DNA of 54,774 nucleotides from a virus (IMGVR_UViG_3300049847_000273:1-54774); one strand, 5' to 3'; counted from the stretch's first letter, positions 1-41,698 are shown. Translations and numbers: made by a program. Notes: a model not told the origin generated them from the letters alone.

Positions 1-825
1 CCACAGTACCTTTTTAAAGGCTGTATCACATGCCTCACGTTCGTTCTAATAGATTAAAAACAAAAAAAGGTATATGATATCCATTTCGCACTACAACGTC
101 TTAAAACGCATGAAACACGCCTTATATCGAATGTTTAAAACAATGCAAATCGTGTGTTTTGCCTTTTTTCCTGCCTTATGCTATGTTTACATATGCTTCT
201 CACTTTATTAAATGCCTTTGTTTTGCGTTAAAATCGACAATTTGCCTTTTTAATCCATTTAACGTTATGTTGCATTATACGCTATGTATTGAGGTGTAGT
301 GTATATGCGTATTACTTCATTTAAGGCTAATTTAAAAGCATTTTAACATTTTACCAATACCATAGTACGTTGTTTAGGTATTTGCAAATAACGGTTTTTT
401 GACTGTTTTAGGCACTTTTTGCCCTTTTTAGCCGTTTATTCATTACTTAATATAGCCCTTGTTTTAGTCATTCTAATAAACGAACTTTCTTTAGTGGTAT
501 TATAGCCCTGCCCTTCTCTCTTTTCTCTCTCTAACGGCTTTCTTTTTAGCCTTGTTTGATATTGTTTGCAATAGCCTTTTAACCGATTGTTTGCTTGCTT
601 GAGTCTATTGCTATGCTTATGCATTGGTAGCGCCTATTGTTTAGGCTTTAATTCAATTGCTTATATTGCTTTGCCTATCCTATTGCCTTGCCCTCTCTAT
701 TCGTGCCTATGCTTTACCCATCATTTGCGCTTGCTATTCGCTTGGATGCACCCATCACACACAATTGATACTATTCATTCACTTGTATGTTGTTTACTGG
801 AAATCGATTTTTTAAAATTTTGAAC

Positions 826-888
826 AAAAAAAAAGCCCTAACTTTTGAAAAGTTAAGGCATAAAAAAACCGCCTATTATAGCGGTTTA
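826..888 (-). terminator. Two tandem intrinsic terminators closing the leftward early-gene cluster
   Basis: Hairpins gccctaactt/aagttaaggc and aaaccgc/gcggttt, each preceded on + by an A-run (U-tail on -). Confidence 0.7.
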
Positions 889-892
889 AAAA

Positions 893-1075
893 TTAATTTT
901 CATTGATTAATACTATTGTTTGTTTTATAAAATCAGGAGCTATAATCAACTTTCTTTCTTCTTCTTTTAAATAGAGCCTATCGCCTTCTATTCTTATAAA
1001 ATTTTCTGCTTTGAAAGTGTAAGCTATTTCTTTTTTTGATTTTCCGATCATTACTATCGTTGTTATCGTTTTCAT
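893..1075 (-). CDS. Hypothetical small early protein (60 aa)
   Basis: ATG start, A-rich upstream, ends just before a terminator. Confidence 0.6.
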   Translation of the reverse strand: MKTITTIVMIGKSKKEIAYTFKAENFIRIEGDRLYLKEEERKLIIAPDFIKQTIVLINEN

Positions 1076-1083
1076 AATCTTAA

Positions 1084-1209
1084 TTATTTACAAATTATAG
1101 TTTCGAACTTTGAGTGGCTATTAGTCAACTCTATGCCCGCAAAAATTAGAAATAAAATAGATAAAGAAATAACTAAGGTAATTGCGATTTTTGATAATAA
1201 AGTTTTCAT
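1084..1209 (-). CDS. Small single-TM membrane peptide (41 aa, likely start MKTLLSK)
   Basis: Hydrophobic stretch IAITLVISLSILFLIFAGI; ATG at 1209 lies downstream of the -7 box at 1247-1254. Confidence 0.55.
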   Translation of the reverse strand: MKTLLSKIAITLVISLSILFLIFAGIELTNSHSKFETIICK

Positions 1210-1218
1210 AATATTGAT

Positions 1219-1317
1219 TTTTGTCGTTTTTTGCTTTATTGCTTCACAAAGATACATAAGTTTATTTGTTATTTCCAAACTTTTTCTGAAAATAATTCAA
1301 AAAAACTTTTAAAGCAT
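1219..1317. repeat. 99-bp direct repeat copy 1 carrying a minus-strand Bacteroidota promoter
   Basis: Identical by eye to 2215-2313; contains TATCTTTG (-7) and TTTG (-33) on the minus strand. Confidence 0.9.
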
Positions 1318-1429
1318 GAAAAAACCGCTTGTTAAAGCGGTTTAGATTAAAGATAAAAATAGATTGCGTGCATTATGATAGTCGCTATAATCGTGTAAAA
1401 ATAGAACATTCCGACGCTCGCTTGTCTTT

Positions 1430-1618
1430 TCATTGGTTTTGGTTTTTAAAGTTAAAACTTTTCGCTGGTAAGTCCTCTCTAAAATTCTCAACAAAATGAT
1501 ATAATCTTGTTGCTACCTTGATTATTATTTCGTTGCCAAAATAATCATACAATGATTGACTTAGACTGTCAATACCATCCAATACTCTAAATACTAATAA
1601 CGTTTTTTTTGTGTACAT
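1430..1618 (-). CDS. Hypothetical protein (62 aa)
   Basis: ORF track, ATG start, co-oriented with neighbours. Confidence 0.45.
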   Translation of the reverse strand: MYTKKTLLVFRVLDGIDSLSQSLYDYFGNEIIIKVATRLYHFVENFREDLPAKSFNFKNQNQ

Positions 1619-1713
1619 GATTTTATATTTTAAAAATTAAACTTGCTAATGTTCTAATTAAAAAATAGCTGCCCATTAGAATAGCTATTTTTATTTGTGT
1701 TGATTTTTTCATT

Positions 1714-1914
1714 TTAAACCTGATCCCAAATTGACTTTAACGCTTGTTTTTTTGTAGTTCCAAAACAAGTTTCTCCTGATTTAATAGCGTCGATTTTTGT
1801 CATGTCAGTGACCAAAATAGATATTTCTTTACCTCTTTTGATTACTATTGCGGTGTAATGCCCCGCCATTCTAAATTTAAGTGTAATTCTTTCGCTTAAT
1901 TGTTGTGTAGTCAT
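1714..1914 (-). CDS. Hypothetical early protein (66 aa)
   Basis: ATG start, tightly coupled to upstream ORF, followed by hairpin terminator near 1660-1692. Confidence 0.65.
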   Translation of the reverse strand: MTTQQLSERITLKFRMAGHYTAIVIKRGKEISILVTDMTKIDAIKSGETCFGTTKKQALKSIWDQV

Positions 1915-1919
1915 TTTTC

Positions 1920-2204
1920 TTATTTATTAGAGTTAATAAAATTTTTGTACTGTACTGTATTTGTAAGCAAGGATAAGTTTTCGTTGTAAACCGTCTCACG
2001 ATCATTTTTTACATTAAAACTTGGGTCACTTTTTAATTTGGAATAAACGTAAATTGAAGCCTTTCCAGTTTTGCCATCTCTCACGCCTCTTTCGATAGCT
2101 ACTATCTTTTTTGTTTGCGGAACGTTGTTTAGGTTATTATTTTTTTCGGTTGCATTAGCTGCAATTGAGAAAATTAATCCGATTGTTAAAATTAAGCTTT
2201 TCAT
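1920..2204 (-). CDS. Exported hypothetical protein (94 aa)
   Basis: Signal-peptide-like N-terminus MKSLILTIGLIFSIAANA; directly downstream of promoter repeat copy 2. Confidence 0.7.
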   Translation of the reverse strand: MKSLILTIGLIFSIAANATEKNNNLNNVPQTKKIVAIERGVRDGKTGKASIYVYSKLKSDPSFNVKNDRETVYNENLSLLTNTVQYKNFINSNK

Positions 2205-2214
2205 AATGTTTAAA

Positions 2215-2313
2215 TTTTGTCGTTTTTTGCTTTATTGCTTCACAAAGATACATAAGTTTATTTGTTATTTCCAAACTTTTTCTGAAAATAATTCAAAAAA
2301 ACTTTTAAAGCAT
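2215..2313. repeat. 99-bp direct repeat copy 2 carrying a minus-strand promoter
   Basis: Identical by eye to 1219-1317; -7 box at 2243-2250. Confidence 0.9.
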
Positions 2314-2448
2314 AAAAAAAGCCTTGAAAAACAAGGCTTTTAAATGGTTTTTATTTTTGTATCAATACCGATAAAATGACGGTTAAAATCAAAATTAACG
2401 CAAAAGGCGTTGTTTTTTGTTCAAAGGTTGGTTGTCGCTTTCTCATGG

Positions 2449-2703
2449 TTAATAAAAGAAATAAGTTATTTTTTTTTGTGATTTGTCAGGACTTACAGAG
2501 GTATGAATTGTGCAACCTAAATCAAATTTTACTCCTTGTCTAGTTTTTTCAAAACCTCCCAAACTTTTAAAAAATTTCTTAGTTTGAGAAGATAAGTACT
2601 TTTTTTTAAAATCGTAGTCCTTTGTATCTTTTTCAACTGAAATTAGTTTATAATTTTTAGCCACTAACTCAAAAATTTCTTGATAATAATTAAATGAAAT
2701 CAT
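2449..2703 (-). CDS. Hypothetical early protein (84 aa, likely start MISFNYY)
   Basis: ATG at 2703 downstream of TACTTTTG -7 box at 2740-2747. Confidence 0.6.
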   Translation of the reverse strand: MISFNYYQEIFELVAKNYKLISVEKDTKDYDFKKKYLSSQTKKFFKSLGGFEKTRQGVKFDLGCTIHTSVSPDKSQKKITYFFY

Positions 2704-2853
2704 GGTTTTATCGTTTTTTATTATTGCATTATTGCACCACAAAAGTACAAGCTTATTTTAAATAAACAATAGAAAAACTTAAAATAATTAAAAAATCTTT
2801 TTATAAAATTAAAAAAGTCCTTAAAAATAAGAACTTAGCAAGGATTAAAAATT

Positions 2854-3345
2854 TTACTTTAAATAGATATTTTCGCTTTTACAATCGCTTAAATCTATAT
2901 TTATAGGTGCATTTACATAAGTGCCTCCTATTGAAGTTATAGCCGTTTGAACCTTTAAAAATTCGGTATTAATATCATTTTTCAACTTTTGCAAATCTTG
3001 ATCTAATGGTTCAAAAAGTACCGCTTTATTGGTTCCTCCGTTCAGGATCATTTTACCGTCATTTTTCAAATAGATTTCAGCTTTAAATAATCCAGTATTC
3101 GGATCAATCGAGAATAGTCGGCTGGCACCAGGAGCGCAAACCCTATCACGTTGGATATATCCAATTATTACCGCTTCGTCAGAATTTGAAGTTTCGGCAA
3201 AAATGGCCGTCATTCCTTCAGGAGCTGCACTATCAAAACCAAAAGGACTTATTTCTTTGGCCGTTTTTGGTCCGAACTGGATCACTTTTAATATTCTTTG
3301 TCCGTTCTCAATTATTACGCTTTTAACCTTGCTTAGTGTTATCAT
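2854..3345 (-). CDS. Baseplate spike/assembly protein, Mu gp45-like
   Basis: N-terminal pattern SPFGFDSAAPEG...AVIIGY...APGASRLFS...IYLKNDG typical of gp45/gpV-type proteins; gpN/gpP-like genes lie upstream. Confidence 0.65.
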   Translation of the reverse strand: MITLSKVKSVIIENGQRILKVIQFGPKTAKEISPFGFDSAAPEGMTAIFAETSNSDEAVIIGYIQRDRVCAPGASRLFSIDPNTGLFKAEIYLKNDGKMILNGGTNKAVLFEPLDQDLQKLKNDINTEFLKVQTAITSIGGTYVNAPINIDLSDCKSENIYLK

Positions 3346-3421
3346 AGTAGCTTATATTTTTAATGTAAAATTACACTTAATCAAAATGTTGTTTCAAAAA
3401 AAAAAAATATTTTTTTCCTGC

Positions 3422-3460
3422 AAAAAAAAAACCTCGCCACAAAATCAATTGGGCGAGGTG
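3422..3460 (-). terminator. Intrinsic terminator
   Basis: acctcgcc/ggcgaggt stem with A10 on + (U-tail on -). Confidence 0.75.
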
Positions 3461-3479
3461 GAAAAAAAGGAAAAAACGA

Positions 3480-3719
3480 CTAAACCTTTTTTAATATCTT
3501 TTCGGCGTGGTTCAAGTCTTCTAACCTTTGCATAAGTACCGTTTTTTCTTGCTGGATTCGCTCAATTGTCTTGTTGACTACCAAACTTACCAAAATTGAT
3601 TTTTCGAAGTTAGAAAGGCTTAAAATCATTATTTCGTTTGTGATAAATTCGGCCTTTTCGTTTATCACGTCTTCGGTTGATTTTTTTTTGAATATTCTCA
3701 CTTTACTTTTTTTAAGCAT
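3480..3719 (-). CDS. Hypothetical protein (79 aa)
   Basis: ORF track; overlaps upstream stop. Confidence 0.6.
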   Translation of the reverse strand: MLKKSKVRIFKKKSTEDVINEKAEFITNEIMILSLSNFEKSILVSLVVNKTIERIQQEKTVLMQRLEDLNHAEKILKKV

Positions 3720-4128
3720 TTAAAAAATTAATTTTCTCAATTATATTACTCATAAAAGTGTCGCGAATTTCGCCATTAGAATTGTCTAATACAATTCTAT
3801 TTTCATAAATATCAATGACTCTATAATTACGGATTTTTATATGTTTCATTTGTTTTAATCCATTTAAAGTGATACCTAAATCAATAGGTAACTTTAAAAT
3901 ATCGTGTTTTATGATTTTCATTTTTTTTATTTCGTTATTAATTTCGGTTAAAGTTTTTTTTCTGAAATCATTTATTGACGCTATGTCTGCAAAATCAAAT
4001 TTTTCCCTTTTCATAAAAGTGAGTCCGATAGTTCCCGCTATGAAATAAATTTTTCCCCGTAGATGCTCAATTGAAGCACTATCTAATATGCTTTTGCAAT
4101 AGTCTAATTCTATTTGTGAAATTTTCAT
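3712..4128 (-). CDS. Hypothetical protein (138 aa)
   Basis: ORF track; ATGA-type overlap with upstream gene. Confidence 0.65.
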   Translation of the reverse strand: MKISQIELDYCKSILDSASIEHLRGKIYFIAGTIGLTFMKREKFDFADIASINDFRKKTLTEINNEIKKMKIIKHDILKLPIDLGITLNGLKQMKHIKIRNYRVIDIYENRIVLDNSNGEIRDTFMSNIIEKINFLNA

Positions 4129-4442
4129 AATATTGATTTTATGTTTACCAGTATTTCATCCACTACATTTTTAACGGTTCCGTTTAAAGATTTGTGAAAA
4201 TTCCACTTTCCGGACCACGAATTATGGCCAATATCTTCAGTGACTTTTTCAACGTCTATAAATCTACCATACAAAGAAAAACAAACTCCATTGTCTTCAT
4301 CAATACGTAGGTACAATGTTCCGAATTTTGTTTCTAAATCGAACTTTAAAGGATCACTAATAAAAGCTATTGCCCCTAAACCAGTTAACGAAATTTGCGT
4401 TTTAGAAACGAATGCTACACTATCTTTTTTTGAAATTTTCAT
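4125..4442 (-). CDS. Hypothetical protein (105 aa)
   Basis: ORF track; SGKWNFH motif seen in small phage early proteins. Confidence 0.65.
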   Translation of the reverse strand: MKISKKDSVAFVSKTQISLTGLGAIAFISDPLKFDLETKFGTLYLRIDEDNGVCFSLYGRFIDVEKVTEDIGHNSWSGKWNFHKSLNGTVKNVVDEILVNIKSIL

Positions 4443-4858: not shown

Positions 4859-5446
4859 TTAGTTGTTAAATTGTTTACCGTTTGCCAAATAATCTTGATC
4901 ATTATCAATTAATGATTCTATTATGAATTCGTCACTTCTTTGATATTCTATATCGGAATAACCTTGATTCTCTAAATCTTTACATAATTCAATATAAAGA
5001 CTTTCTATATTTTCACAAACTTTTGTAACAATTTCGTTTATGTTTTGATAATCATTTTTGTATGATTCTAAACTATAATCAATATCGCTTTTACTTGCAT
5101 AACAATATCGGCCGTTGTTACCCGTGTTTTTAAAACTACAATTATCTAAAATTGCTTTTGCGGTTTTTTCTTTTTCTGAACCTAAAATTTCTAAAAAAAA
5201 GGACAAAAGTATTTTTTCGTCAATTTTATTACAACTAAAACTTAAGCCGTCACCTTGAGAATAAGATAGACTATACTCTATTCTTATATCGTCATAAAAA
5301 CCTGCATTTTCAATTTGTTCTTTTGCGTTGTCATAAAAGTAGTCTAAAGAAATTTCGTCTTTATTTCTACAAATTTCAATCGCCACTTGTTTTGCGTCTT
5401 CGCTTAATTCCTCAAATTTGTAAACTTTTGTTCTTACTGTTCTCAT
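4859..5446 (-). CDS. Acidic conserved phage/plasmid early protein (195 aa)
   Basis: N-terminus VYKFEELSEDAKQVAIE, YSLSYSQGDG and C-terminal EYQRSDEFIIESLIDN; first gene after promoter at 5512-5519. Confidence 0.7.
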   Translation of the reverse strand: MRTVRTKVYKFEELSEDAKQVAIEICRNKDEISLDYFYDNAKEQIENAGFYDDIRIEYSLSYSQGDGLSFSCNKIDEKILLSFFLEILGSEKEKTAKAILDNCSFKNTGNNGRYCYASKSDIDYSLESYKNDYQNINEIVTKVCENIESLYIELCKDLENQGYSDIEYQRSDEFIIESLIDNDQDYLANGKQFNN

Positions 5447-29786: not shown

Positions 29787-31172
29787 TTATTTTAAATTTA
29801 ATTTCTTGATTATTTCTACCAAAACACCTACACAGATACTGTTACCAGCTTGTTTGTAGGCTTGACTGTCGCTGACATCCCAAACAAAATCTTTTACTCC
29901 TGGAATCCCAAAATTAAAGTCCATCAGTTTGAAGCACTCAATTGGCAAAAGCCTACGTATTCTTTGTTGGCTGTAAACGCCCTGATTACATTGAGTATCT
30001 AAAGTTTGACTTACTTTTTTACCAACTCTACCACGTCTTGTTTCTGAATTAGGATTTGAGAAGTTTATAGAATCTTCTTCTTCTTCTTCTGCTATGTCAA
30101 AGCCTTTTGAATTGTTGGTTGGAATCACAACCACATTATCCTTCTGAACTGTAGTCAATGTATTTGAAGTGCCGTTTTCGTTTATTTCAAGCATTTGCTC
30201 GGTTTCTAATCCTGATTTACGGCTTTTTGGGTTTTGTGGATTACGACCTCGTATTGCTCCTATTTTTATTCCTTCGCCTTTATTAGTTGATAATGTTGGA
30301 CTAACTCCTTCATCGCTATAAACATTTCCATTCATTCCATTTCCTGAAGGATTCACATTTGCTAATCTTATGATATTATCTGAAATATCTAATGATTTTG
30401 AACTTGATGTGATTGTAGATGCAACACTTTCTTCATCTTTAAAATTGATGTTTCCGTTATTAAAGTTAGAAGCTCTTGAATCAAAATAATTCAGCATTTT
30501 ATCACTCAAAAAATACTTTTCATCTACTTGATATTCCAATACATCTTTTAGTCTTTTTTCTAGCGGAAATGGCTTTGGGAACACAAAATTATTATCCTCA
30601 TCATCACGAATACCAATGATAAAAATACGCTCTCTATTTTGAGGAATTCCGTAGTGTTTAGCATTTAGTACTTGGTAGTAAATATGGTATGGCACCGAAT
30701 CATCACAAGGAAAAAATGTATGCAGTCCGTTTACTGATTTTCCGCCTAGATAGTTTATCCACTCTTGAAACGTTCTTCCGTATTCTGCTTTTGGATCAAC
30801 TTTGTCGTGAGATAGTAATCCTTTTACGTTTTCAAAAATAAAATACCTTGGTTTATTTTTTTGGATAAATTCCAATGAATTGAAAAACAAAATACCACGC
30901 TTATCCTCTTTACCTAATCGCTTTCCTGCTAAACTGAATGATTGGCAAGGAGGCGATGTCATATAGACGTCTAAACTTTCTTTTGGTATTTCACGTTCGT
31001 AAACATCTTTTGGGAAATACCTTGGAGTACCATAATTTAACTCAAATGTTTGTCTTGCGTACTTATCCATGTCACAAGCAAATAATTCATCATACTCAAT
31101 TCCTAATCTAATTAATGATTGATTAAATGCGCCTACTCCTGAAAAATCAGAACCTATTTTTATTTTTGTCAT
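29787..31172 (-). CDS. DNA (cytosine-5)-methyltransferase
   Basis: Motif I SDFSGVG, IV SPPCQ, VI FENVKG, VIII PQNRER, X QAGNS. Confidence 0.95.
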   Translation of the reverse strand: MTKIKIGSDFSGVGAFNQSLIRLGIEYDELFACDMDKYARQTFELNYGTPRYFPKDVYEREIPKESLDVYMTSPPCQSFSLAGKRLGKEDKRGILFFNSLEFIQKNKPRYFIFENVKGLLSHDKVDPKAEYGRTFQEWINYLGGKSVNGLHTFFPCDDSVPYHIYYQVLNAKHYGIPQNRERIFIIGIRDDEDNNFVFPKPFPLEKRLKDVLEYQVDEKYFLSDKMLNYFDSRASNFNNGNINFKDEESVASTITSSSKSLDISDNIIRLANVNPSGNGMNGNVYSDEGVSPTLSTNKGEGIKIGAIRGRNPQNPKSRKSGLETEQMLEINENGTSNTLTTVQKDNVVVIPTNNSKGFDIAEEEEEDSINFSNPNSETRRGRVGKKVSQTLDTQCNQGVYSQQRIRRLLPIECFKLMDFNFGIPGVKDFVWDVSDSQAYKQAGNSICVGVLVEIIKKLNLK

Positions 31173-33886: not shown

Positions 33887-34870
33887 TTAAAATGGAATAT
33901 CGCTGTCTTCCTCGTCTAGTGATTCTGATACTTCCTCATACACTTGGGTGCCGATTGGCTTGAACTTCTCTTTCTTAGCATATACTTTTTCGCCTTGGTA
34001 CATCCAATAAAACTTTGCTAAGTTCCTGTCGAAATAAAGTTCTACTTTTCCAACACTTGCTACGCTCTTTGGTTTGGCTTTGGTAATCATCACATCTACT
34101 GCGTTGGGATGTCCACTTTGCCTATGGACGGTAATCATACATTTTCCTGAATCATACCACGTTCCTCCTCCTTTCAAATCGTATGGCGTTGGAGGTTTTC
34201 TTTGGCCGTCTTTATCGGCTTCTGTTTTTACAGGGTGAATAATGGTAAAGAAATGCATCTTGTGTAACTCAGACATTGAATTTCGGTAACTCAACACGTC
34301 ATCCAAATATTTATCATCCCTTGCAAAACCTTCTCCCTCCATCCCTACTCCATGCTTCATGTCTTTCCAAGAATCTATTGTAGCTGTTTGTATTCCTCCA
34401 TCTACATCTTTGTTCATTTGAGCTGCAATATCCCAAAACTCATAGGGTGTAATTTTCACCTTAAGATTGTCTTTGACCATAATTCTAAAATGATGTAACA
34501 CCCAATCTAAATTACGATCCACTTCTTGTTCTGAAATATAATTGGAATTTACAAAACGTTTATCAAATGTCTTTCCGGAAACTTTATGAATTAGGATTGC
34601 AACAATTTCATTTTTATCTCCAACATCCGGAACGTAAAGCAAATGTTTCCATCCATAAAACAAAGATGTGTTCAAAAGTAATTCAAGAAGGAATTCGCTC
34701 TTACCTGATCCAGGAAAACCTGTAATATCTGTAACCCCTGGAAGTGCCATGCTATATTTTTCATCAAGCAAAGGAAACCCTAAATAACACCCTCTTAAAG
34801 CACCGCTTTCCCTATAAACCATCATACCATCTCTGATACTGTTGTCAACTATTGAAAATCCTTCTTTCAT
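33887..34870 (-). CDS. DnaB/Twinkle-like replicative helicase
   Basis: Walker A TGFPGSGKS, Walker B TIDSW, IIHPVK, PYDLKGG, ITVHR; acidic DIPF tail. Confidence 0.8.
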   Translation of the reverse strand: MKEGFSIVDNSIRDGMMVYRESGALRGCYLGFPLLDEKYSMALPGVTDITGFPGSGKSEFLLELLLNTSLFYGWKHLLYVPDVGDKNEIVAILIHKVSGKTFDKRFVNSNYISEQEVDRNLDWVLHHFRIMVKDNLKVKITPYEFWDIAAQMNKDVDGGIQTATIDSWKDMKHGVGMEGEGFARDDKYLDDVLSYRNSMSELHKMHFFTIIHPVKTEADKDGQRKPPTPYDLKGGGTWYDSGKCMITVHRQSGHPNAVDVMITKAKPKSVASVGKVELYFDRNLAKFYWMYQGEKVYAKKEKFKPIGTQVYEEVSESLDEEDSDIPF

Positions 34871-35283: not shown

Positions 35284-35517
35284 TTAAAAAGGTAGTTTGT
35301 TTTTAGGTATTTTTTCTAATTGACTTCTTAAATAAGTCAAAGACTTAAATTTGCCGTTAATGATATAGCCTATACAGTTATTATTTGTGACTTGTTTTAT
35401 TAATCTACCACTCTTGGAATTGTAACAAAGTCCGCAAGTGGTAAATAAATAATTATTCGCAATTTTTAAACGGTATTTACAAGTGTAATGTACTGTGATT
35501 GTTACTGTTGCGCTCAT
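35284..35517 (-). CDS. Hypothetical protein (77 aa, likely start MSATVT)
   Basis: CYNSKSGRLIKQ...IGYIINGKF...LPF. Confidence 0.65.
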   Translation of the reverse strand: MSATVTITVHYTCKYRLKIANNYLFTTCGLCYNSKSGRLIKQVTNNNCIGYIINGKFKSLTYLRSQLEKIPKNKLPF

Positions 35518-35634
35518 AGTAAATGTAGTTGTAGCCAATAGTTAGCAGTAATGCTATGAAGTAGATTCGTTTTTTTCTTTCAACAATTGGTTGCATAATA
35601 TTTTATTTAATTTGTTAGTGTAAAAAAGCCGAGA

Positions 35635-35724
35635 ATATAACATACGCTTGTAGCTATATGCTAGAAACTCCCTGCTATTATTCACGATTGCGGTGGCATA
35701 CAGCTACAAGCTTTCCCGTTATAA
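35635..35724 (+). repeat. attC-like site 1
   Basis: TAAC-ATAC-gcttgtagctatatgc...gcatacagctacaagc-TTTCCC-GTTATAA; arms 15/16 complementary. Confidence 0.8.
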
Positions 35725-36030
35725 GTGATTTTCTGAAAGACGAAACTCAACTAAAGTAGAAATCCACGTTTCGGAATAATTATGTGTAGTTCCGTCTTTA
35801 AAAAAAACTTTATAAATAACGCTATTTGCTTTTTCGTTAATGTGGCTATATTCTAACTTTTCAATTGGCTTTCTTTCGTTTTTATCGCCATAGCGAGTAA
35901 ATGTTTTTTCAATTTTTATTTTATCAATATTGCCTCCATATTTAAAATATTCGTGTAACCCAATCTCCTTATAAAAACCACTTATAACAGTCGTTTGTGG
36001 TAATTGGGTTTCTGTCTTTAATTTATTCAT
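35719..36030 (-). CDS. Cassette 1 protein (103 aa, start MNKLKTETQLPQTTVISG inside attC-like site 2)
   Basis: First ATG at 36030 after A-rich region; stop TAA overlaps the GTTA core at 35718-35721. Confidence 0.7.
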   Translation of the reverse strand: MNKLKTETQLPQTTVISGFYKEIGLHEYFKYGGNIDKIKIEKTFTRYGDKNERKPIEKLEYSHINEKANSVIYKVFFKDGTTHNYSETWISTLVEFRLSENHL

Positions 36031-36112
36031 TGTTTTGTATTTGTTATGATTAGTGATTATTAGGTGATTCGGCTTACTTTTACGCACTAACCACACAAGC
36101 AAAACGTTAGGG
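35982..36112 (+). repeat. attC-like site 2
   Basis: TTATAAC-AGTC-gtttgtg...cacaagc-AAAAC-GTTAGGG. Confidence 0.7.
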
Positions 36113-36118
36113 CAAATA

Positions 36119-36556
36119 CTACATTTTGCTCATTAAAGAGCAATAATTTTCAATTGCATTTTCAAAGGTATTTCCAAAAGCATAGTTTTCGCTTTCTTGT
36201 AGATTTATAAAATCTAAACCATGACAGCAAAATTCATTACCGTCTTTTTCTACTTGTATTTTCCACCATTCTTTTTGAACATTACTTTTATTACACGAGT
36301 CACATACAAATGTTCCTCCGTAAGAAAAAGGGAAACAATCTGATTTCTCACATTTGAAAACGTATGTAAATGCTATTCCATCTTCTTTTGCCATTTTTTT
36401 AGCGTATTCAAAACCTTGCGTTTCTAAATACCATTGTCCAACATTTCCATAATCAGCTTTTTTTGGTTCTGAACCTCCATTAATAAACTGATTAAATCCT
36501 GCACAAGTTGAAGGACTAGCTTTAATTAAATCTTGAGCAAATTTTAAATTTTTCAT
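36119..36556 (-). CDS. Cassette 2 protein (145 aa, Cys-rich putative Zn-binding)
   Basis: Start MKNLKF; CEKSDC...CDSC; KDGNEFCC...FINLQES...AFG. Confidence 0.75.
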   Translation of the reverse strand: MKNLKFAQDLIKASPSTCAGFNQFINGGSEPKKADYGNVGQWYLETQGFEYAKKMAKEDGIAFTYVFKCEKSDCFPFSYGGTFVCDSCNKSNVQKEWWKIQVEKDGNEFCCHGLDFINLQESENYAFGNTFENAIENYCSLMSKM

Positions 36557-36586
36557 AATAATTTTTAGTTTAATAATACGTACTTG

Positions 36587-36721
36587 CCCTAACACACGCT
36601 ACAAGCAAGCTCGGCAATTGACTGTATTTGTTAATAATTTTGTACTTGTTTATATTTGTTTTTTAACCGAAAGATTACGCCTCTTTAATCCCAACCTGCG
36701 TGTAGCGCGGGAACGTTAGGG
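36587..36721 (+). repeat. attC-like site 3
   Basis: CCCTAAC-ACA-cgctacaagcaagctcgg...ccaacctgcgtgtagcg-CGGGAAC-GTTAGGG. Confidence 0.8.
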
Positions 36722-36740
36722 ATAACCGCCTAGATTGTGG

Positions 36741-36977
36741 CTAAAGCCTATCTCCTTCTGTATCTCCAGAAGTATCTTGTCTTATCATTTTTTCAGTACC
36801 TTCTCTTGGAGTAAATGTTACATTTTTTCCTGCCTTTAAGTGCGAACCTCCTTCTGTATGAATATATTTATTGCTAACAGACAAAACTTTTGCACCTTTG
36901 TAATTTGTTCCTGTTAAGTTTGCTTCTAAATAATCTCTTTGAAATGAATTTGCATTTCCGCTAATTTTTTTTGACAT
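36741..36977 (-). CDS. Cassette 3 protein (78 aa)
   Basis: ATG with A-rich upstream; fills the space between GTT 36715 and AAC 37022. Confidence 0.7.
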   Translation of the reverse strand: MSKKISGNANSFQRDYLEANLTGTNYKGAKVLSVSNKYIHTEGGSHLKAGKNVTFTPREGTEKMIRQDTSGDTEGDRL

Positions 36978-37015
36978 AATTTCAATTTTTATTTGATTAA
37001 TGTTTCGTGGTATAT

Positions 37016-37093
37016 CCCTAACACTCGTTACACGCTCCAGCCGAAACTATCCAGCGTGCTAGGCTGGCATCGTGTAGCGAGGGGCCGTTGTAG
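37016..37093 (+). repeat. attC-like site 4
   Basis: CCCTAAC-A-ctcgttacacgctccagcc...ggctggcatcgtgtagcgag-GGGCC-GTTGTAG; GC-rich 78-bp hairpin in AT-rich DNA. Confidence 0.85.
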
Positions 37094-37100
37094 GCAATGG

Positions 37101-37289
37101 CTACGATTCCGTTTCAATTGAACTATTTTTAGATGCATTTTTAAGGCATCCAATTTTAAACGCATCATTGTAATAGGATAATAACCCCATCACTTCAAAA
37201 TCTGAAAAACCATCTACTTTAAAAGATGTTTTAGTTCCATCTTCATTTACTTCTTGTTTTATTACAATTTTTTTAATTTCTATTTCCAT
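37101..37289 (-). CDS. Cassette 4 protein (62 aa, start MEIEIKK)
   Basis: First ATG lies inside cassette boundaries 37087-37327; GFSDFEVMGLL. Confidence 0.7.
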   Translation of the reverse strand: MEIEIKKIVIKQEVNEDGTKTSFKVDGFSDFEVMGLLSYYNDAFKIGCLKNASKNSSIETES

Positions 37290-37320
37290 AATTACTTTTA
37301 GTTTTAAAACCCGCCACAGC

Positions 37321-37453
37321 CTACAACAGCAGTTACAAGACAAACGGGCATTTGTTATTAATTTTTTAATTGTTTTGTACTTTTTAGTTTTGGTTTTTAA
37401 TCGAAGCATAAGGCGTACTTTTCCTTAACTACCGTTATGCTTTAACGTTAGCA
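37321..37453 (+). repeat. attC-like site 5 (degenerate right arm)
   Basis: CTACAAC-AGCAG...GTTAGCA; central T-rich segment resembles site 3; only short aacgg/ccgtt arm pairing remains. Confidence 0.6.
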
Positions 37454-37459
37454 GTAATA

Positions 37460-37771
37460 CTACGAAAATCGTAAATTAAGACTACATAATCCGCAAATAA
37501 TACCCAATATAAATATTATCAAAATACGTCTTGCATGATTTGATTCTAATCTCCATTCATCAGCTATATTAGTATAAATAAGAAAAAAAATAGTATAAAT
37601 AAAAAATACTAAAAGCGCAAATTGTCTTAATTGTATATTTTCTTTTAGTTCAAATATCCATTGCCAAGGGTTTTTAAATTCAAATATTAAAAAAGACCTT
37701 ACTAAATAAGATACCCAATAAATGCCGTTTGATATTAAAAAAATATCTTTTACTTTGTTTTTAGTTGTCAT
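37460..37771 (-). CDS. Cassette 5 membrane protein (103 aa, ~3 TM)
   Basis: Three hydrophobic stretches; very AT-rich; bracketed by GTT 37447 and AAC 37808. Confidence 0.7.
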   Translation of the reverse strand: MTTKNKVKDIFLISNGIYWVSYLVRSFLIFEFKNPWQWIFELKENIQLRQFALLVFFIYTIFFLIYTNIADEWRLESNHARRILIIFILGIICGLCSLNLRFS

Positions 37772-37842
37772 AACATATTTATTTTTAAAAATCCGTACTA
37801 TTGCTAACGTTTTAATATTAATTGTTTTGTGTTAAAAAAAAT

Positions 37843-37964
37843 AAACAAAAAAAGTCATGCATTCCCTGGTTCGGCAGGTACTAACACAACTTTTTCTGTT
37901 TACTATTTATATCTGCTTCCGAACTCAGACACTGCAAATATATAGTTTTATTTTAATACACAAA
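37843..37964 (-). promoter_or_regulatory. Promoter + structured leader driving the cassette array and replication genes
   Basis: TATATTTG 37935-37942, TTTG 37961-37964; GTTCGG near +1 is complementary to CCGAAC loop of a hairpin followed by a U-tract. Confidence 0.65.
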
Positions 37965-37986: not shown

Positions 37987-38015
37987 AAAAAAAGCCTAGC
38001 TACTACACTAGGCTT
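37987..38015 (-). terminator. Terminator ending the portal-lysis operon
   Basis: aagcctag/ctaggctt stem with A-run on +. Confidence 0.75.
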
Positions 38016-38054
38016 AATTCGAGGTTAACTACTCCTCTTGAACCAAAATGAAAA

Positions 38055-38621
38055 TCATTTTTGCTTTTCAATTCTTATAACTCGGCTTTCACCGCACTCA
38101 TCAAAGACTTTTGCTGTCATTTCTTTTCTTCCTAGCCACCTTGTTTTTATTCCTAAAAACTTCCACTCTCTCCTTTGCCAATAAGCTACAGCATCCATTT
38201 TGTTTTTGAATTGGCGATTTTGAATGATCACTCCTGAACTATCTACATAACCCCTAATGACCAAACATTTTGAACTGTCAACAAAAGGTCCAACTGGATA
38301 TTTTTTTATTAAAGTGTCTTTGTAATTGTATTTTACCGTGACGATTTCTTTGATTCTATCCGTTTTAATTCCAGCTTCTGCGAGCTTGTTTTTCAAATCG
38401 GTATTCTCATACTCAAAATGTTGTTTTAATTCATTAGCACTTAGAATTTGTGTTGAAAAACGCAAACTATCTGCTTTTCGCAATTGTTCTGCATTCGAAG
38501 ATAAACGTTCATTTTCTGCTTTTTTAAACTCATTGTCTTTGTAAAGCCAAACAACCCAAATAATCAAAGCCGTTATTCCCAGCAGCTTGATGTTTTTTAT
38601 GATTAAATCTAGTGTAATCAT
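38055..38621 (-). CDS. Putative spanin/lysis accessory protein
   Basis: N-terminal TM then coiled coil; directly after endolysin. Confidence 0.55.
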   Translation of the reverse strand: MITLDLIIKNIKLLGITALIIWVVWLYKDNEFKKAENERLSSNAEQLRKADSLRFSTQILSANELKQHFEYENTDLKNKLAEAGIKTDRIKEIVTVKYNYKDTLIKKYPVGPFVDSSKCLVIRGYVDSSGVIIQNRQFKNKMDAVAYWQRREWKFLGIKTRWLGRKEMTAKVFDECGESRVIRIEKQK

Positions 38622-39163
38622 ATCATATTTTCGTATTTAATTACAATGTCTGCTATGTCTTTGGCTAATTGTTCTTTATTTTCTTGATAAGCTTCAATAT
38701 CGCTTTTGTTTGAAATAAAGCACAACTCTAATAAACAAACAATTCCACTTTCTCGCATTAAACCTAATCGACCTCTATGGCTTTGCGCTTCGTTTATAAT
38801 ACCTCTATTTTTAATTCCAAGCCTAAAGGCTGTTGCTTCTACTAATTCTTTAGCAAATGCATTGTCTAGTCTATCCGCATCCATACTTACAAGCGAAGTA
38901 CATCCTGTTGCGGTTGGCTTGTCGGAAGCATCAAAATGAAATTCTAAAACAACTGATGCGCTACCTGTTTTTATTCGTTCTAGGTATTGCGCTAGTCTTT
39001 CATCGTCATTATCTGATGTATAAGGTACGTTTTTAGCTTTTAGCTCACTTATTACTAAGTTTCTAAATTCAACCGCTAAATTAGCTTCTGTGTAGCCGTT
39101 GCCTACTGCTCCGCTATCTGTTTTAATTCCATTTGGGTTATGCCCTGCCGAGATGAATACCAT
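38618..39163 (-). CDS. Endolysin, N-acetylmuramoyl-L-alanine amidase (Amidase_3)
   Basis: ISAGH, EANL, EFHFDA, LLELCFISN. Confidence 0.92.
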   Translation of the reverse strand: MVFISAGHNPNGIKTDSGAVGNGYTEANLAVEFRNLVISELKAKNVPYTSDNDDERLAQYLERIKTGSASVVLEFHFDASDKPTATGCTSLVSMDADRLDNAFAKELVEATAFRLGIKNRGIINEAQSHRGRLGLMRESGIVCLLELCFISNKSDIEAYQENKEQLAKDIADIVIKYENMI

Positions 39164-40876: not shown

Positions 40877-41698
40877 TTACCATATTGTTTTTAGTAACCC
40901 TGTTATTGGCTGTCCTGCGATTGAACCATTGGGTAAAGTTATGAAATTTAAGTACGCTCCTTTTTCTATTTTTGGCATTAATGCACTATCTGTGATAGTA
41001 TTACTTTCTACGACTGCTGTATTTTCTCTTATTAATGTAGAGTATAGCGGTTTTACAAGAACAATTGATGCCAAACCACCATTTGGCGCATTAAAAGTTA
41101 TTGACTCTACCGCCCTAACGCCTTTATCATTTCCTTGTAATGGCAAAAAACATCCAAATGATGCTTGTTGAGATGTTCCGTGAATAAAAGAAGCAATATT
41201 TACTGCTGTATTAGATAAAACATTTCCTGTTGTTCTTCCTTGTACGCCATCAGAATTAGTATATGTAACATTAAAAGTTGCTCCACCTATGTATGGATAT
41301 TGAGCAACAATAAACATTCTAACTCCTTCTCCGCTTGTGTATCTAGGCAAAGCAACGGTGTTATCCATTTGTTGTGTATCAACACTATCCATATCCACTT
41401 GCGGATAGAATAATAAGTAATCACACAATAATAATGATAATGGTGCTAATGTAGTTGTGTAGCATAGAGTTTCAAATATAAAATCCGAATTTCCATAATA
41501 CATTCCTTTACTACCTTCTAATGTAGTTGCTGTAAGTTCAATTCCTGAATAAAAGTTAGGTGATGGATTTCCTGATGCCATAGATAAATCTGCCCAAACA
41601 CCTGCTGTAGTAGCTTGTGAAGATACTTTTCTGAAAGAAGCAACGTTTTGTCTTCCTAAATCTATCGAATCAATTATATCTTTAGTCCTGTTTATCAT
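40877..41698 (-). CDS. Putative virion accessory protein (273 aa), paralog of 40006-40875
   Basis: LPRYTSGEGVRMFIV, FLPLQGNDKGVRAVES. Confidence 0.7.
   Translation of the reverse strand: MINRTKDIIDSIDLGRQNVASFRKVSSQATTAGVWADLSMASGNPSPNFYSGIELTATTLEGSKGMYYGNSDFIFETLCYTTTLAPLSLLLCDYLLFYPQVDMDSVDTQQMDNTVALPRYTSGEGVRMFIVAQYPYIGGATFNVTYTNSDGVQGRTTGNVLSNTAVNIASFIHGTSQQASFGCFLPLQGNDKGVRAVESITFNAPNGGLASIVLVKPLYSTLIRENTAVVESNTITDSALMPKIEKGAYLNFITLPNGSIAGQPITGLLKTIW

Follow-up and report, generated by a model that had tools for sequence, protein, structure and literature searches.

The interval 35541-37811 of the complete genome of a Flavobacterium phage (IMGVR_UViG_3300049847_000273; 54.8 kb, CheckV 100%; "the window" below denotes all 54,774 nucleotides of it) is, taken as a whole, quite probably best explained as the recombinase-less descendant of a phage-borne, integron-like cassette array. 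It encodes five small ORFs, all on the minus strand as a prior sequence-only reading had stated and as is read directly from the sequence, with imperfect palindromes between them that end in RYYYAAC...GTTRRRY (Table 1). Three intact sites (S1, S3, and S4) and two decayed ones (S2 and S5) lie within 1.8 kb, and a profile search of the whole 54.8-kb genome gave no match to the tyrosine recombinase models PF00589 and TIGR02249. In relatives, found via the neighboring helicase, the arrays occupy the same place in the genome, with the lysis genes on one side and the replication genes on the other. Three helicase-linked relatives encode a 267-aa recombinase after the array, which ends about 50 nt before the recombinase gene.

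Table 1. Positions of the sites, cassettes, and flanking elements of the array, counted from the first base of the window
Feature	Position	Strand	Description
S1	35639-35720	minus	82 nt, short class; plus strand begins AACATACGC; intact 16-bp stem; arm duplex of -18.3 kcal/mol (gene sense)
S2	35986-36108	minus	123 nt, long class; plus strand begins AACAGTCGT; weakened stem, -7.8 kcal/mol; ORF1 ATG (36030-36028) in loop
S3	36591-36717	minus	Plus strand begins AACACACGC; intact, -15.3 kcal/mol
S4	37020-37089	minus	70 nt, short class; plus strand begins AACACTCGT; intact, -17.9 kcal/mol
S5	37325-37449	minus	Plus strand begins AACAGCAGT; departs from A-nn-C-G; arms no longer pair, -9.1 kcal/mol
S6, collapsed sixth junction	37806-37811	minus	GTT directly after AAC
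Cassette 0	35542-35718	minus	S1 plus a short stretch; sole ORF of 27 codons; probably a fused or deleted remnant, because its two R-boxes are not complementary
Cassette 1	35719-36106	minus	ORF1 (35719-36030, 103 aa) and its own site S2; first cassette base is the last base of the stop codon
Cassette 2	36107-36715	minus	ORF2 (36119-36556, 145 aa, Cys-rich) and site S3
Cassette 3	36716-37087	minus	ORF3 (36741-36977, 78 aa) and site S4
Cassette 4	37088-37447	minus	ORF4 (37101-37289, 62 aa) and site S5; frame open back to ATG 37409 within S5
Cassette 5 or backbone flank	37448-37811	minus	ORF5 (37460-37771, 103 aa, hydrophobic); bounds GTTAGCAGTAATA and TATTGCTAAC
Left (recombinase-proximal) end of array	35541-35560	plus	GTTAGCAGTAAT... 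after AATA; in gene sense ...ATTACTGCTAAC|TATTGG; resembles the junction of locus L031
Promoter-like motif, Bacteroidota type	37935-37964	minus	TTTG-N18-TATATTTG, upstream of the array
Terminator-like hairpin of preceding gene	~37993-38020		Read from sequence

Within the window, each of the four successive ORFs from ORF1 to ORF4 is surrounded by perfect inverted repeats of 9 to 10 nt that start with GTT and end with AAC; the inverted flanks of ORF5 measure 7 nt and extend to 12/14. As in attC cassettes, a cassette starts with sequence complementary to the inverse core of the site that it carries, and this holds along the arrays of the relatives as well. ORF2, ORF4, and ORF5 end in TAG codons 13, 14, and 13 nt, respectively, from the G of GTT, just as had been noted from the sequence; the ORF3 stop lies at 26 nt. 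That reading had also described the plus-strand sites as AAC-A-nn-C-G with the longer spacer before GTT: the spacers are indeed 1 to 4 nt after AAC and 5 to 7 nt before GTT, but S5 does not fit the motif. The T-rich center that it ascribed to S2, S3, and S5 is common to these three sites (repeat family D1). The arm duplexes of S2 and S5 pair hardly better than random DNA (random windows, -5.2 kcal/mol; median of 181 reference sites, -18.7 kcal/mol), and both are probably nonfunctional as sites; the 5' half of S5 is similar to a site of a relative (L063:4811). At the left end, positions 35541 to 35551 look like the remnant of an attI-like junction with no recombinase gene beside it. Positions 35541 to 35560 are repeated directly at 37447 to 37466 (20 nt; repeat family D15, 90% identity), and a contig from sequencing run X4 matches the window up to 35547 and is unlike it beyond. 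The motif at 37935-37964, matched to the Bacteroidota promoter consensus, is the likely source of a polycistronic transcript of the array. Searches of Pfam and PHROGs with the five cassette ORFs gave no match except a weak, subthreshold one to DUF6056 for ORF5, and tblastn searches with the window cassette proteins against all fetched loci recovered self matches and one translated site, with relatives for ORF1 only.

We searched for the site architecture on the gene-sense strand of the window and of 105 related loci (L001 to L105) with a scan for a stem plus spacer asymmetry, on which we relied because heuristics based on inverted flanks or on chaining give noisy results in AT-rich DNA. It recovered 248 occurrences versus 45 in shuffled sequence, with the spacer asymmetry peaking at +3/+4 (162 of the 248 sites). 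There are 185 sites in 60 loci, with a median ungapped stem of 20 bp; the 5' spacer is 5 nt long in 132 of these sites, and the 3' spacer is 1 to 2 nt long in 141. Among 72 aligned sites, TAACG and TGTTA are invariant and all 12 consensus stem pairs show compensatory double changes; this covariation is observed directly, as are the anatomy and conservation of the arrays, the junction geometry, and the site-ORF linkage described below. The sites have the palindromic layout of attC, R''-L''...L'-R' with RYYYAAC and GTTRRRY cores. The gene-sense strand is the better-folding one in 154 of 181 sites, and 267 G.T or T.G pairs were counted versus 89 A.C or C.A pairs, with a near-invariant G opposite T. 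The aligned sites have no conserved bulged (extrahelical) bases; the asymmetry between the spacers, 5 nt versus 1 to 2 nt, is found instead.

On the better-folding strand, the excess of unpaired bases is found on the 5' side. In canonical attC bottom strands, the extrahelical bases are in the 3' half, and this feature taken alone would give the opposite orientation. We rejected the placement of unpaired bases as an indicator of the top strand because both these sites and the recombinase differ from the canonical pair.

The recombinase of the relatives matches PF00589 with an E value of about 1e-35. Its best NCBIfam model is XerA (XerA_Arch; 177 to 185 bits, cutoff 220), followed by XerC and XerD (152 to 164 bits, cutoff about 330), and the IntI model (TIGR02249) gives 137 to 149 bits in two stretches (cutoff 265). 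It is Xer-like in its architecture and in its PDB matches (4a8e and 5hxy) and falls below the curated XerA, XerC, and XerD thresholds. With 34 residues where IntI4 (PDB code 2a3v) has 82, it lacks the IntI-specific insertion (I2 helix region) and is not an integron integrase. Viral contigs yielded at least 93 stretches with a gene for a relative of this recombinase; we kept 80 of them.

About 50 nt before the recombinase gene there is a conserved junction, at which variable sequence ending in ...YAAC gives way to constant TAYTATATRTA. The strict pattern is present in 48 of the 105 loci, and the similarity between loci starts exactly at (T)AAC. In the orientation of the window, the junction and the recombinase gene form the left end, with the gene reading outward from the array. 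Of 40 nonredundant junction loci, 33 have an ORF of 40 aa or longer that ends no more than 40 nt before the junction; among the 35 junction loci in which a site was detected, none has a site ending 60 nt or less from the junction. The relatives possess a primary site comparable to attI, of which the window would keep only the remnant at its left end. In bacterial assemblies, all seven recombinase matches of at least 54% identity have a ...YAAC junction and six of the seven have detected sites too, whereas neither a junction nor sites were seen beside any of the 10 examined matches of at most 45% identity. GenBank isolate phages yielded no recombinase of more than 40% identity.

Four lines of evidence agree that each site belongs to the cassette of the ORF that follows it in gene sense. 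These are the junction geometry described above, a shared block, the sharing of flanks, and the ORFs that start within sites. The block, of 1,027 nt and 93% identity, runs from the AAC before a site to the AAC after the ORF and is internal in L048 and junction-proximal in L070; in a comparison of L008 with L045, the upstream site is 0.85 identical and the downstream site is 0.41 identical. In 130 pairs of sites that are at least 80% identical in the core, similarity extends 10 nt or more past GTT in 16 cases and 10 nt or more ahead of AAC in 1 case; 21 pairs have only the 3' R-box in common, and 7 have only the 5' one. These pairs are not independent, and the linkage is carried by a minority of them, since neither R-box is common in 102 and fewer than 10 nt of similarity follow GTT in 114; blastn searches with cassette bodies added few informative pairs. 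Finally, the ORF is forced to start inside the upstream site in 11 of 79 single-ORF cassettes and in window ORF1. The longest ORF lies on the recombinase strand in 116 of 118 intersite intervals. The cassette boundaries so defined make the plus strand of the window the counterpart of the canonical attC top strand, so that all cassette ORFs are inverted. The sequence-only reading had proposed that the cassette genes are antisense to the apparent attC top strand, and the end at which the junction lies, the position of the recombinase, and the site-ORF linkage all support that proposal.

ORF1 exemplifies a start within a site. Its ATG (36030) lies in the center of S2 and is followed by no later ATG in frame; the translation is MNKLKTETQLPQTTVISGF, in which the S2 3' arm and the GTTATAAGT core are read as ...QLPQTTVIS, and the stop codon (35719-35721) overlaps the GTTA of S1. 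Both ends had been placed there from the sequence, and the start is supported by 13 homologs (54 to 83% identity), all of which have an N-terminal extension ahead of the core-encoded V-I-S and keep a Met 13 to 17 residues ahead of it. In this family I16 is invariant, V15 and S17 are nearly so, and a C-terminal HL or YL is present in 13/13 full-length members (12 homologs and the query) and absent from the divergent P0014. Relatives of ORF1 were located in one locus among viral contigs and in three among metagenome contigs; the site of the L107 homolog retains an intact stem of ~20 bp (-19.9 kcal/mol) with a coding 3' arm, and the copies in L106 and L108 are without the 5' arm of the site. In the predicted structure of ORF1, the fold starts at residue 18, with residues 1 to 17 and 100 to 103 modeled with low confidence outside it, and the model has no structural match in the PDB at an E value of ≤0.001. 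The further proposal that reshuffling could swap N-terminal peptides between proteins is not supported, because site and ORF form one unit: with the probable crossover at AA|C upstream of the site, the site, start codon, ORF, and stop codon would move as a single cassette.

On this basis, a cassette has the form C-site-GTTRRRY-(leader)-ORF-RYYYAA, in which the gene-sense site comprises RYYYAAC, a 5-nt spacer starting with G, an imperfect stem of ~20 bp, an A-rich loop, the return arm, 1 to 2 nt, and GTTRRRY. In the relatives, by analogy with integrons, a site would be folded on its gene-sense strand by the Xer-like tyrosine recombinase, which would carry out strand exchange at AA|C with the conserved attI-like site that lies 50 nt ahead of the recombinase gene. 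A new cassette would then be placed after the existing array and ahead of that gene, in the direction shared by all phage genes, and would be expressed by read-through from the far-end promoter rather than from an attI promoter. Being located at the 5' end of the cassette, the site would act as a 5' untranslated region, with the A-rich loop as a putative translation-initiation region; in some cassettes, including that of window ORF1, it also holds the start codon and the first ~15 codons, and stop codons fall within the downstream R-box or shortly ahead of it. The steps that we infer are catalysis by the recombinase, the folding of a single strand, the position of the cut, and expression. Folding in particular is drawn as an analogy because the recombinase lacks the I2 region, which IntI reportedly requires for single-stranded sites (PMC7790495). 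In the window, the recombinase gene and most of attI would have been lost, two sites have decayed, and one has collapsed, leaving an array that would be fixed unless a coinfecting relative supplied the recombinase. Contigs of four sequencing runs contained no excision joint, circular cassette, or recombination event; they hold related sites in other contexts, the apparent joints being short mismatched contigs from such sites, and the similarity to the backbone ends at 35547.

Several other explanations were weighed against this one. It is hardly credible, given the counts, that the sites arose as chance palindromes of AT-rich intergenic sequence or represent miniature inverted-repeat transposons flanking each ORF. 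The background of the inverted-flank search is admittedly high (1,208 pairs versus 587 in shuffled sequence), the chain finder is noisy (493 versus 291), and one site-like match falls within a structural gene (41074-41169), but the more than fivefold excess of sites with a fixed spacer asymmetry, the covariation at every consensus pair, and the chains of consecutive cassettes up to the recombinase gene (16 in L030) speak against chance, and no transposase is present. We also regard it as unlikely that the hairpins are solely RNA-level intercistronic elements, serving processing, stabilization, or translational control and shuffled by homologous recombination between similar hairpins. The superior folding of the transcribed-sense strand and the excess of G.T over A.C pairs would fit a function in mRNA, as would the A-rich loops ahead of start codons and the recurrence of site families next to unrelated ORFs, with most related pairs having neither R-box in common. 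Left unexplained on that account are the invariant AAC/GTT ends, the cassette-specific complementarity of the R-boxes, the abrupt onset, at AAC, of the constant region next to a tyrosine recombinase gene in dozens of loci, and the confinement of arrays in bacterial assemblies to this recombinase clade. Rfam gave no relevant match, the leader scoring below threshold with the RT-14 RNA (28.9 bits versus 48.1; E = 0.29). Functions at the RNA level and in recombination are not mutually exclusive.

We consider it improbable that the array is an ordinary CALIN in canonical orientation, made up of cassettes from a bacterial integron and reliant on the IntI of a host; the top strand would then be the gene-sense one, and each site would be part of the cassette of the preceding ORF. 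The RYYYAAC...GTTRRRY palindromes and the cassette-specific inverted flanks are compatible with attC logic whichever strand is taken, and this orientation would put the surplus unpaired bases into the 3' half of the gene-complementary strand, as in canonical bottom strands. The conserved junction and the recombinase gene, however, are found downstream of the arrays, with no site separating the last ORF from the junction (0/35), and an ordinary CALIN disagrees with a whole-cassette block that begins at the AAC before the site and with flank sharing that is 16 to 1 in favor of the downstream side. ORF1 and the 11 similar cassettes would lose their start codon at each exchange, and the associated recombinase is not an IntI. 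Precedent exists, since Qi et al. (2023) reported CALINs in virulent phages, including the Flavobacteriaceae phage Polaribacter phage P12002L, and IntI1 recombined P12002L_attC2 with attI1 (PMC9892861). The two sites predicted in P12002L have "divergent directions," an oddity ascribed there to mosaicism. The P12002L CALIN resembles the window array in being an attC-like cluster without an integrase in a phage of Flavobacteriaceae, and we find that the P12002L methylase genes are preceded by the same architecture (AAC-G, 5-nt spacer, stem, 1 to 2 nt, GTT). In contrast to the arrays described here, the available text of that account describes no dedicated phage recombinase, attI-like junction, or rule of ORF orientation, and its main text has no occurrence of either "Flavobacterium" or "Bacteroid."

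The cassette array proposed here shares with integrons the imperfect palindromic sites with RYYYAAC and GTTRRRY, the complementary cassette ends, and the arrays of small, mostly orphan ORFs. In the relatives, the 5' end of the recombinase gene abuts the primary site, and the variable part begins at G|TT / AA|C; site families show homogeneity both inside an array and from one array to another, as is typical of chromosomal integrons. Unlike in integrons, the recombinase is Xer-like and without the IntI-specific insertion; the ORFs are inverted relative to the site in 116/118 intervals, with the site 5' of the gene and the array read toward the recombinase gene; no promoter is evident at the attI side, and the promoter-like motif is found at the opposite end; the spacer asymmetry and a conserved G.T replace conserved extrahelical bases; and the host is a lytic-type phage genome, which in the window is without any recombinase. 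A second comparison is with the dif modules of Acinetobacter plasmids, likewise small gene modules with inverted sites moved by Xer-type tyrosine recombinases rather than by IntI. Those modules have 28-bp double-stranded XerC/XerD sites, which lack a long stem-loop and AAC/GTT cores, and depend on the host XerCD, whereas the phage arrays have covarying hairpins of 70 to 130 nt and a phage-encoded recombinase beside the primary site. Our literature search found no description of this recombinase-plus-array system. We lean, by a modest degree, toward the broader view that Bacteroidota phages own a cassette-capture platform distinct from integrons, with a small Xer-like recombinase lacking I2 that acts on folded hairpin sites and on a primary site before its own gene, and with sites at the 5' ends of cassettes. 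This platform would either have reinvented the integron principle or survive as a relative of its ancestor, and the window would be a recombinase-less derivative of it. A captured gene would on this platform bring its own leader, because the site is at the 5' end of the cassette, and sometimes its own start codon, and would be read with the phage operon.

Integrons are the textbook bacterial gene-capture system, and IntI presumably became able to act on folded single strands when it acquired one extra helix. Here, cassette logic occurs beside a recombinase that is without that helix, in virulent-type phage genomes, and with every gene inverted relative to its site. If active, such a system would show the cassette principle to be independent of IntI, would account for the hypervariable accessory region of a widespread group of phages of Flavobacterium and other Bacteroidota, and would offer a testable system for the trade in small accessory genes among phages, the P12002L methylases being located in such cassettes. 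For annotation, tools trained on bacterial attC sites see these arrays only partly, and the "integrase" of such phages has been taken for a sign of lysogeny. The integrases of the closest isolates, Polaribacter phages Leef and Freya and Cellulophaga phage Ingeline, were read in this way as a sign of a temperate lifestyle by Bartlau et al. (2021), and the words "integron" and "cassette" have no occurrence in that paper (PMC8776804). A ...CTAAC| junction precedes the integrase gene, and by eye we find AAC-G...stem...GTT in intergenic regions of Leef_1; the automated site scan flagged none in Freya_10. Among the ten Freya isolates, genome length varies by up to 4.9 kb. With an identity of only 33 to 34% to the recombinase, these integrases seem too distant to count as the same clade, and we withhold that assignment.

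We also considered the T-rich center of the sites as a promoter and rejected it, the gene-sense loops being without TTTG...TAnnTTTG. The lone plus-strand match to the promoter pattern is in S3 (36627-36658) and would drive antisense transcription; over the window, the pattern is weakly enriched, with 12 matches versus 6.0 expected.

The window is a complete phage genome (54,774-bp IMG/VR record, 100% complete by CheckV), with nearly all of its genes on the minus strand and with the Flavobacterium phages FL-1 and FCL-2 as distant kin (66-68% identity, a small part aligned). Between a lysis amidase on one side and replication genes on the other, five imperfect palindromes (S1 to S5) separate five small minus-strand ORFs (ORF1 to ORF5), none of which matched a Pfam or PHROG family; neither a tyrosine recombinase nor IntI was found in this genome. 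Each ORF is enclosed by an inverted repeat of its own, with GTT at the start and AAC at the end (perfect over 9-10 nt in four of the five), and such ORF-specific inverted flanks are the signature of integron cassettes. The elements noted in the sequence-only reading are present: AAC-A-nn-C-G openings in S1 to S4, a plus-strand spacer that is short after AAC and longer before GTT, a T-rich center common to S2, S3, and S5, TAG stops 13-14 nt from GTT in ORF2, ORF4, and ORF5, an ORF1 ATG at position 36030 within S2, and an ORF1 stop overlapping the GTTA of S1. Outside the array, the backbone encodes a 461-aa C-5 cytosine DNA methylase (29787-31172, minus strand; PF00145, E = 5.6e-59), and near the left genome end a 33-nt promoter-like string occurs in two identical copies 996 nt apart.

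Features of the window array, its surroundings, and two comparison loci
Feature	Coordinates	Strand	Remark
ORF1	35719-36030	minus	103 aa
Site S1	35639-35720		
Site S2	35986-36108		
Site S3	36591-36717		
Site S4	37020-37089		
Site S5	37325-37449		
Short Cys/Gly-rich ORF	35284-35517	minus	
Short Cys/Gly-rich ORF in L027	8474-8689		
Leader with hairpin	37830-37930	minus	
Leader with hairpin in L008	about 4990-5085		
Bacteroidota-type promoter-like motif	37935-37964	minus	
Lysis amidase	38618-39163		PF01520
Helicase-like replication gene	33887-34870		
Promoter-like 33-nt string, two copies	1247-1279, 2243-2275	minus	

The same kind of array occupies the same position in 28 loci found via the neighboring helicase, and in three of these the array is immediately followed, on its own strand, by the gene for a 267-aa tyrosine recombinase. 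Its best NCBIfam model was archaeal XerA, with a score below the cut-off, and the integron-integrase model gave 137-149 bits (cut-off, 265) with the match split into two stretches. Where the solved IntI4 has 82 residues, the aligned recombinase has 34; thus, the IntI-specific insertion is missing, and the enzyme of the relatives is Xer-like. Searches of viral contigs with this recombinase recovered 93 stretches encoding relatives, 80 of which were kept (47-92% identity). In almost all recombinase loci, the sequence ~50 nt upstream of the start codon passes from a variable ...YAAC to a constant TAYTATATRTA... (strict pattern in 48 of 105 loci). Similarity between loci starts exactly at the AAC of this junction, and long cassette chains stop there (16 cassettes in locus L030 and 14 in locus L093, by a noisy heuristic). 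In bacterial assemblies, all seven hits with at least 54% identity (mostly from Flavobacterium and Bacteroidales assemblies, with one contig binned as Gammaproteobacteria) have the ...YAAC junction before the recombinase gene, and sites were detected in six; neither junction nor sites occurred in any of the 10 more distant bacterial hits examined. Terriglobales MAGs (Acidobacteriota; L141 to L146 and others) encode recombinases of 37-40% identity in many copies per genome; the two loci inspected, L141 and L171, had neither junction nor sites, and these enzymes probably belong to a different mobile element.

Scanning the gene-sense strand of the window and of 105 related loci (L001 to L105) for a stem plus cores yielded 248 sites versus 45 in shuffled sequence, and the spacer-length difference peaked at +3/+4 (162 of 248). 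After removal of five duplicate loci and with a required spacer asymmetry of 2-5 nt, 185 sites from 60 loci formed the working set. It includes a match at 41074-41169 (AAC...10-bp stem...GTT) that lies within a structural gene and that we took as chance, a guide to the scan's false positives of about one per 50 kb. In gene sense, a typical site consists of RYYYAAC, a 5-nt spacer beginning with G (132 of 185 sites), a stem (median, 20 bp), an A-rich loop, the return arm, a spacer of 1-2 nt that is mostly T (141 of 185), and GTTRRRY, and sites fall into size classes of about 85 nt and about 120-125 nt. Across 72 aligned long sites, TAACG and TGTTA are invariant, and compensatory double changes occur at each of the 12 consensus stem pairs. 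Stem oppositions of the G.T and T.G type number 267 versus 89 for A.C and C.A, and for 154 of 181 sites the better fold is that of the gene-sense strand. In canonical attC bottom strands, the unpaired bases lie on one arm; in the phage sites, the surplus unpaired bases lie on the opposite arm. The main alternative is that these hairpins act in mRNA, a role that better sense-strand folding would fit equally and that is not exclusive of recombination.

Since the cores are symmetric in sequence, we tested which ORF a site belongs to by comparing loci. In 33 of 40 nonredundant loci, an ORF of 40 aa or longer terminates no more than 40 nt from the junction, and a site ends within 60 nt of it in none of the 35 loci with a detected site; thus, the site of the last cassette lies on the far side of its ORF. 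A 1027-nt block of 93% identity, internal in L048 and adjoining the junction in L070, starts at the AAC that precedes a site and stops at the AAC that follows the ORF, beyond which one locus has a different site and the other the junction. For homologous ORFs in L008 and L045, identity is 0.85 between the upstream sites and 0.41 between the downstream sites. We also compared 130 site pairs, each drawn from two loci and no less than 80% identical in the core; these pairs are not independent. Similarity extends at least 10 nt beyond GTT in 16 and at least 10 nt before AAC in 1; the R-box is shared at the 3' end alone in 21, at the 5' end alone in 7, and at neither in 102. Of 118 inter-site intervals, 116 have their longest ORF on the recombinase strand. 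Of the 79 cassettes with a single ORF, 11 have no usable ATG past GTT, so that the start must fall in the preceding site. Stops crowd against the downstream core: in 20 of the 79 cassettes the stop ends 1 nt short of the end of AAC, and in 22 it ends 13 nt short. Taken together, these observations place the probable crossover at AA|C on the 5' side of the site as read in gene sense; with the window in plus orientation, this corresponds to the G|TT that closes each site on the right. The order of recombinase gene, primary site, and cassettes thus matches that of canonical integrons, except that every ORF is inverted, and the orientation proposed in the sequence-only reading holds on the strength of the junction ORF ends, the 1027-nt block, L008/L045, flank sharing, and the intervals.

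The start of ORF1 inside S2 was examined through 13 homologues (54-83% identity). All of them have a variable N-terminal stretch of 13-17 residues followed by V-I-S, which is encoded by the GTTATAAGT core (I16 invariant, V15 and S17 nearly so). At the C terminus, the downstream R-box encodes HL or YL in the query and in 12 full-length homologues, 13 sequences in all; the divergent homologue P0014 lacks this ending. In the metagenome locus L107, an ORF1 homologue lies behind a different neighbor and its site retains an intact ~20-bp stem (arm duplex, -19.9 kcal/mol), with the ATG in the loop and a coding 3' arm; the noncoding 5' arm differs from that of the window in step with the coding arm. 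In the predicted ORF1 structure (mean pLDDT, 80.7), the fold begins at residue 18, and confidence is low in the site-encoded N terminus and the last four residues. The N-terminal conservation, the L107 stem, and the start of the modeled fold thus support well, at the level of conservation, a translation start within the site.

From the analogy to integrons, a mechanism of strand folding, exchange, and cassette entry can be added to the observed anatomy, stem covariation, junction geometry, and site-ORF linkage. A site would fold on its gene-sense strand with its two cores paired, the Xer-like recombinase would exchange a single strand between AA|C and the primary site, and new cassettes would enter just upstream of the recombinase gene. 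The single-strand activity of IntI is reportedly due to its I2 helix (excerpted text of PMC7790495); this region is missing from the Xer-like recombinase. Because it stands at the 5' end of its cassette, a site would act as the leader of that cassette, carrying the start codon too in some cases. Exchange at AA|C would move site, start codon, ORF, and stop jointly, and therefore N-terminal peptides would not be swapped between proteins; the sequence-only reading was right in its observation, in orientation and in the start inside the site, but not in this consequence.

In our reading, the window array descends from an active one and has since lost its recombinase and partly decayed. Against a reference of 181 sites (median arm duplex, -18.7 kcal/mol), S1, S3, and S4 (-18.3, -15.3, and -17.9 kcal/mol) are within range, and S2 and S5 (-7.8 and -9.1 kcal/mol) are near random windows (median, -5.2). 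At 37806-37811, a collapsed site has GTT directly after AAC. The left array end reads, in gene sense, ...ATTACTGCTAAC|TATTGG..., like the junction of L031, with the recombinase gene absent, and between this remnant and S1 there are mismatched R-boxes and a lone 27-codon ORF. A 20-nt direct repeat of 90% identity (35541-35560 and 37447-37466) brackets most of the array, and its GTTAGCAGTA R-box also marks the junction-proximal cassette of L027 and L031; the repeat may represent what was once the right half of the primary site, or it may be a scar left when the recombinase gene was deleted. A contig of another sample tracks the window backbone to 35547 and then diverges. The arrays of the window and L027 both lack a recombinase, and in each the ...ATTACTGCTAAC junction precedes a short ORF of 71-77 aa; the two ORFs resemble each other in their Cys/Gly-rich pattern. 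A NUMOD4/HNH endonuclease is encoded downstream of the recombinase gene in L008 (8698-9333), and loss of the recombinase gene may have involved a homing endonuclease.

Transcription would run from the Bacteroidota-type promoter-like motif across the array toward the recombinase gene. This motif is separated from the first cassette by a leader of ~95 nt containing a conserved hairpin, GTTCGGAAGCAG...CTGCCGAAC, that ends in a T-run; the L008 array is preceded by a similar leader. Rfam returned only a subthreshold RT-14 RNA match for it (28.9 bits, E = 0.29), and the leader could be a small RNA or an attenuator.

Virulent phages with CALINs (attC clusters without an integrase), such as Polaribacter phage P12002L, have already been published, and IntI1 recombined one P12002L site (excerpted text of PMC9892861). 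P12002L has the same site architecture, upstream of methylase genes, so that the window adds another example to a phenomenon already known in part; the excerpted text of PMC9892861 describes no dedicated recombinase, primary site, or inverted-ORF rule. A full-text literature search, with most subscription journals outside its coverage, returned no description of this recombinase-plus-array system. Integrons use IntI with its specific insertion, whereas the phage arrays have an Xer-like enzyme without it, and the cassette layout is the same, yet with all ORFs inverted. In Bacteroidota phages, this array type looks like a so far undescribed variation on the integron principle, of which the window is a member that lacks the recombinase. 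Among isolates, the integrases closest to the recombinase (33-34% identity) come from Polaribacter phages Leef and Freya and Cellulophaga phage Ingeline; PMC8776804 takes them as signs of a temperate lifestyle and contains neither "integron" nor "cassette". The near-identical GenBank isolates Freya_1 to Freya_10 range in genome length from 43,978 to 48,920 bp, with the integrase start at record positions from 83 to 4180, suggesting that the content immediately upstream of this gene varies.
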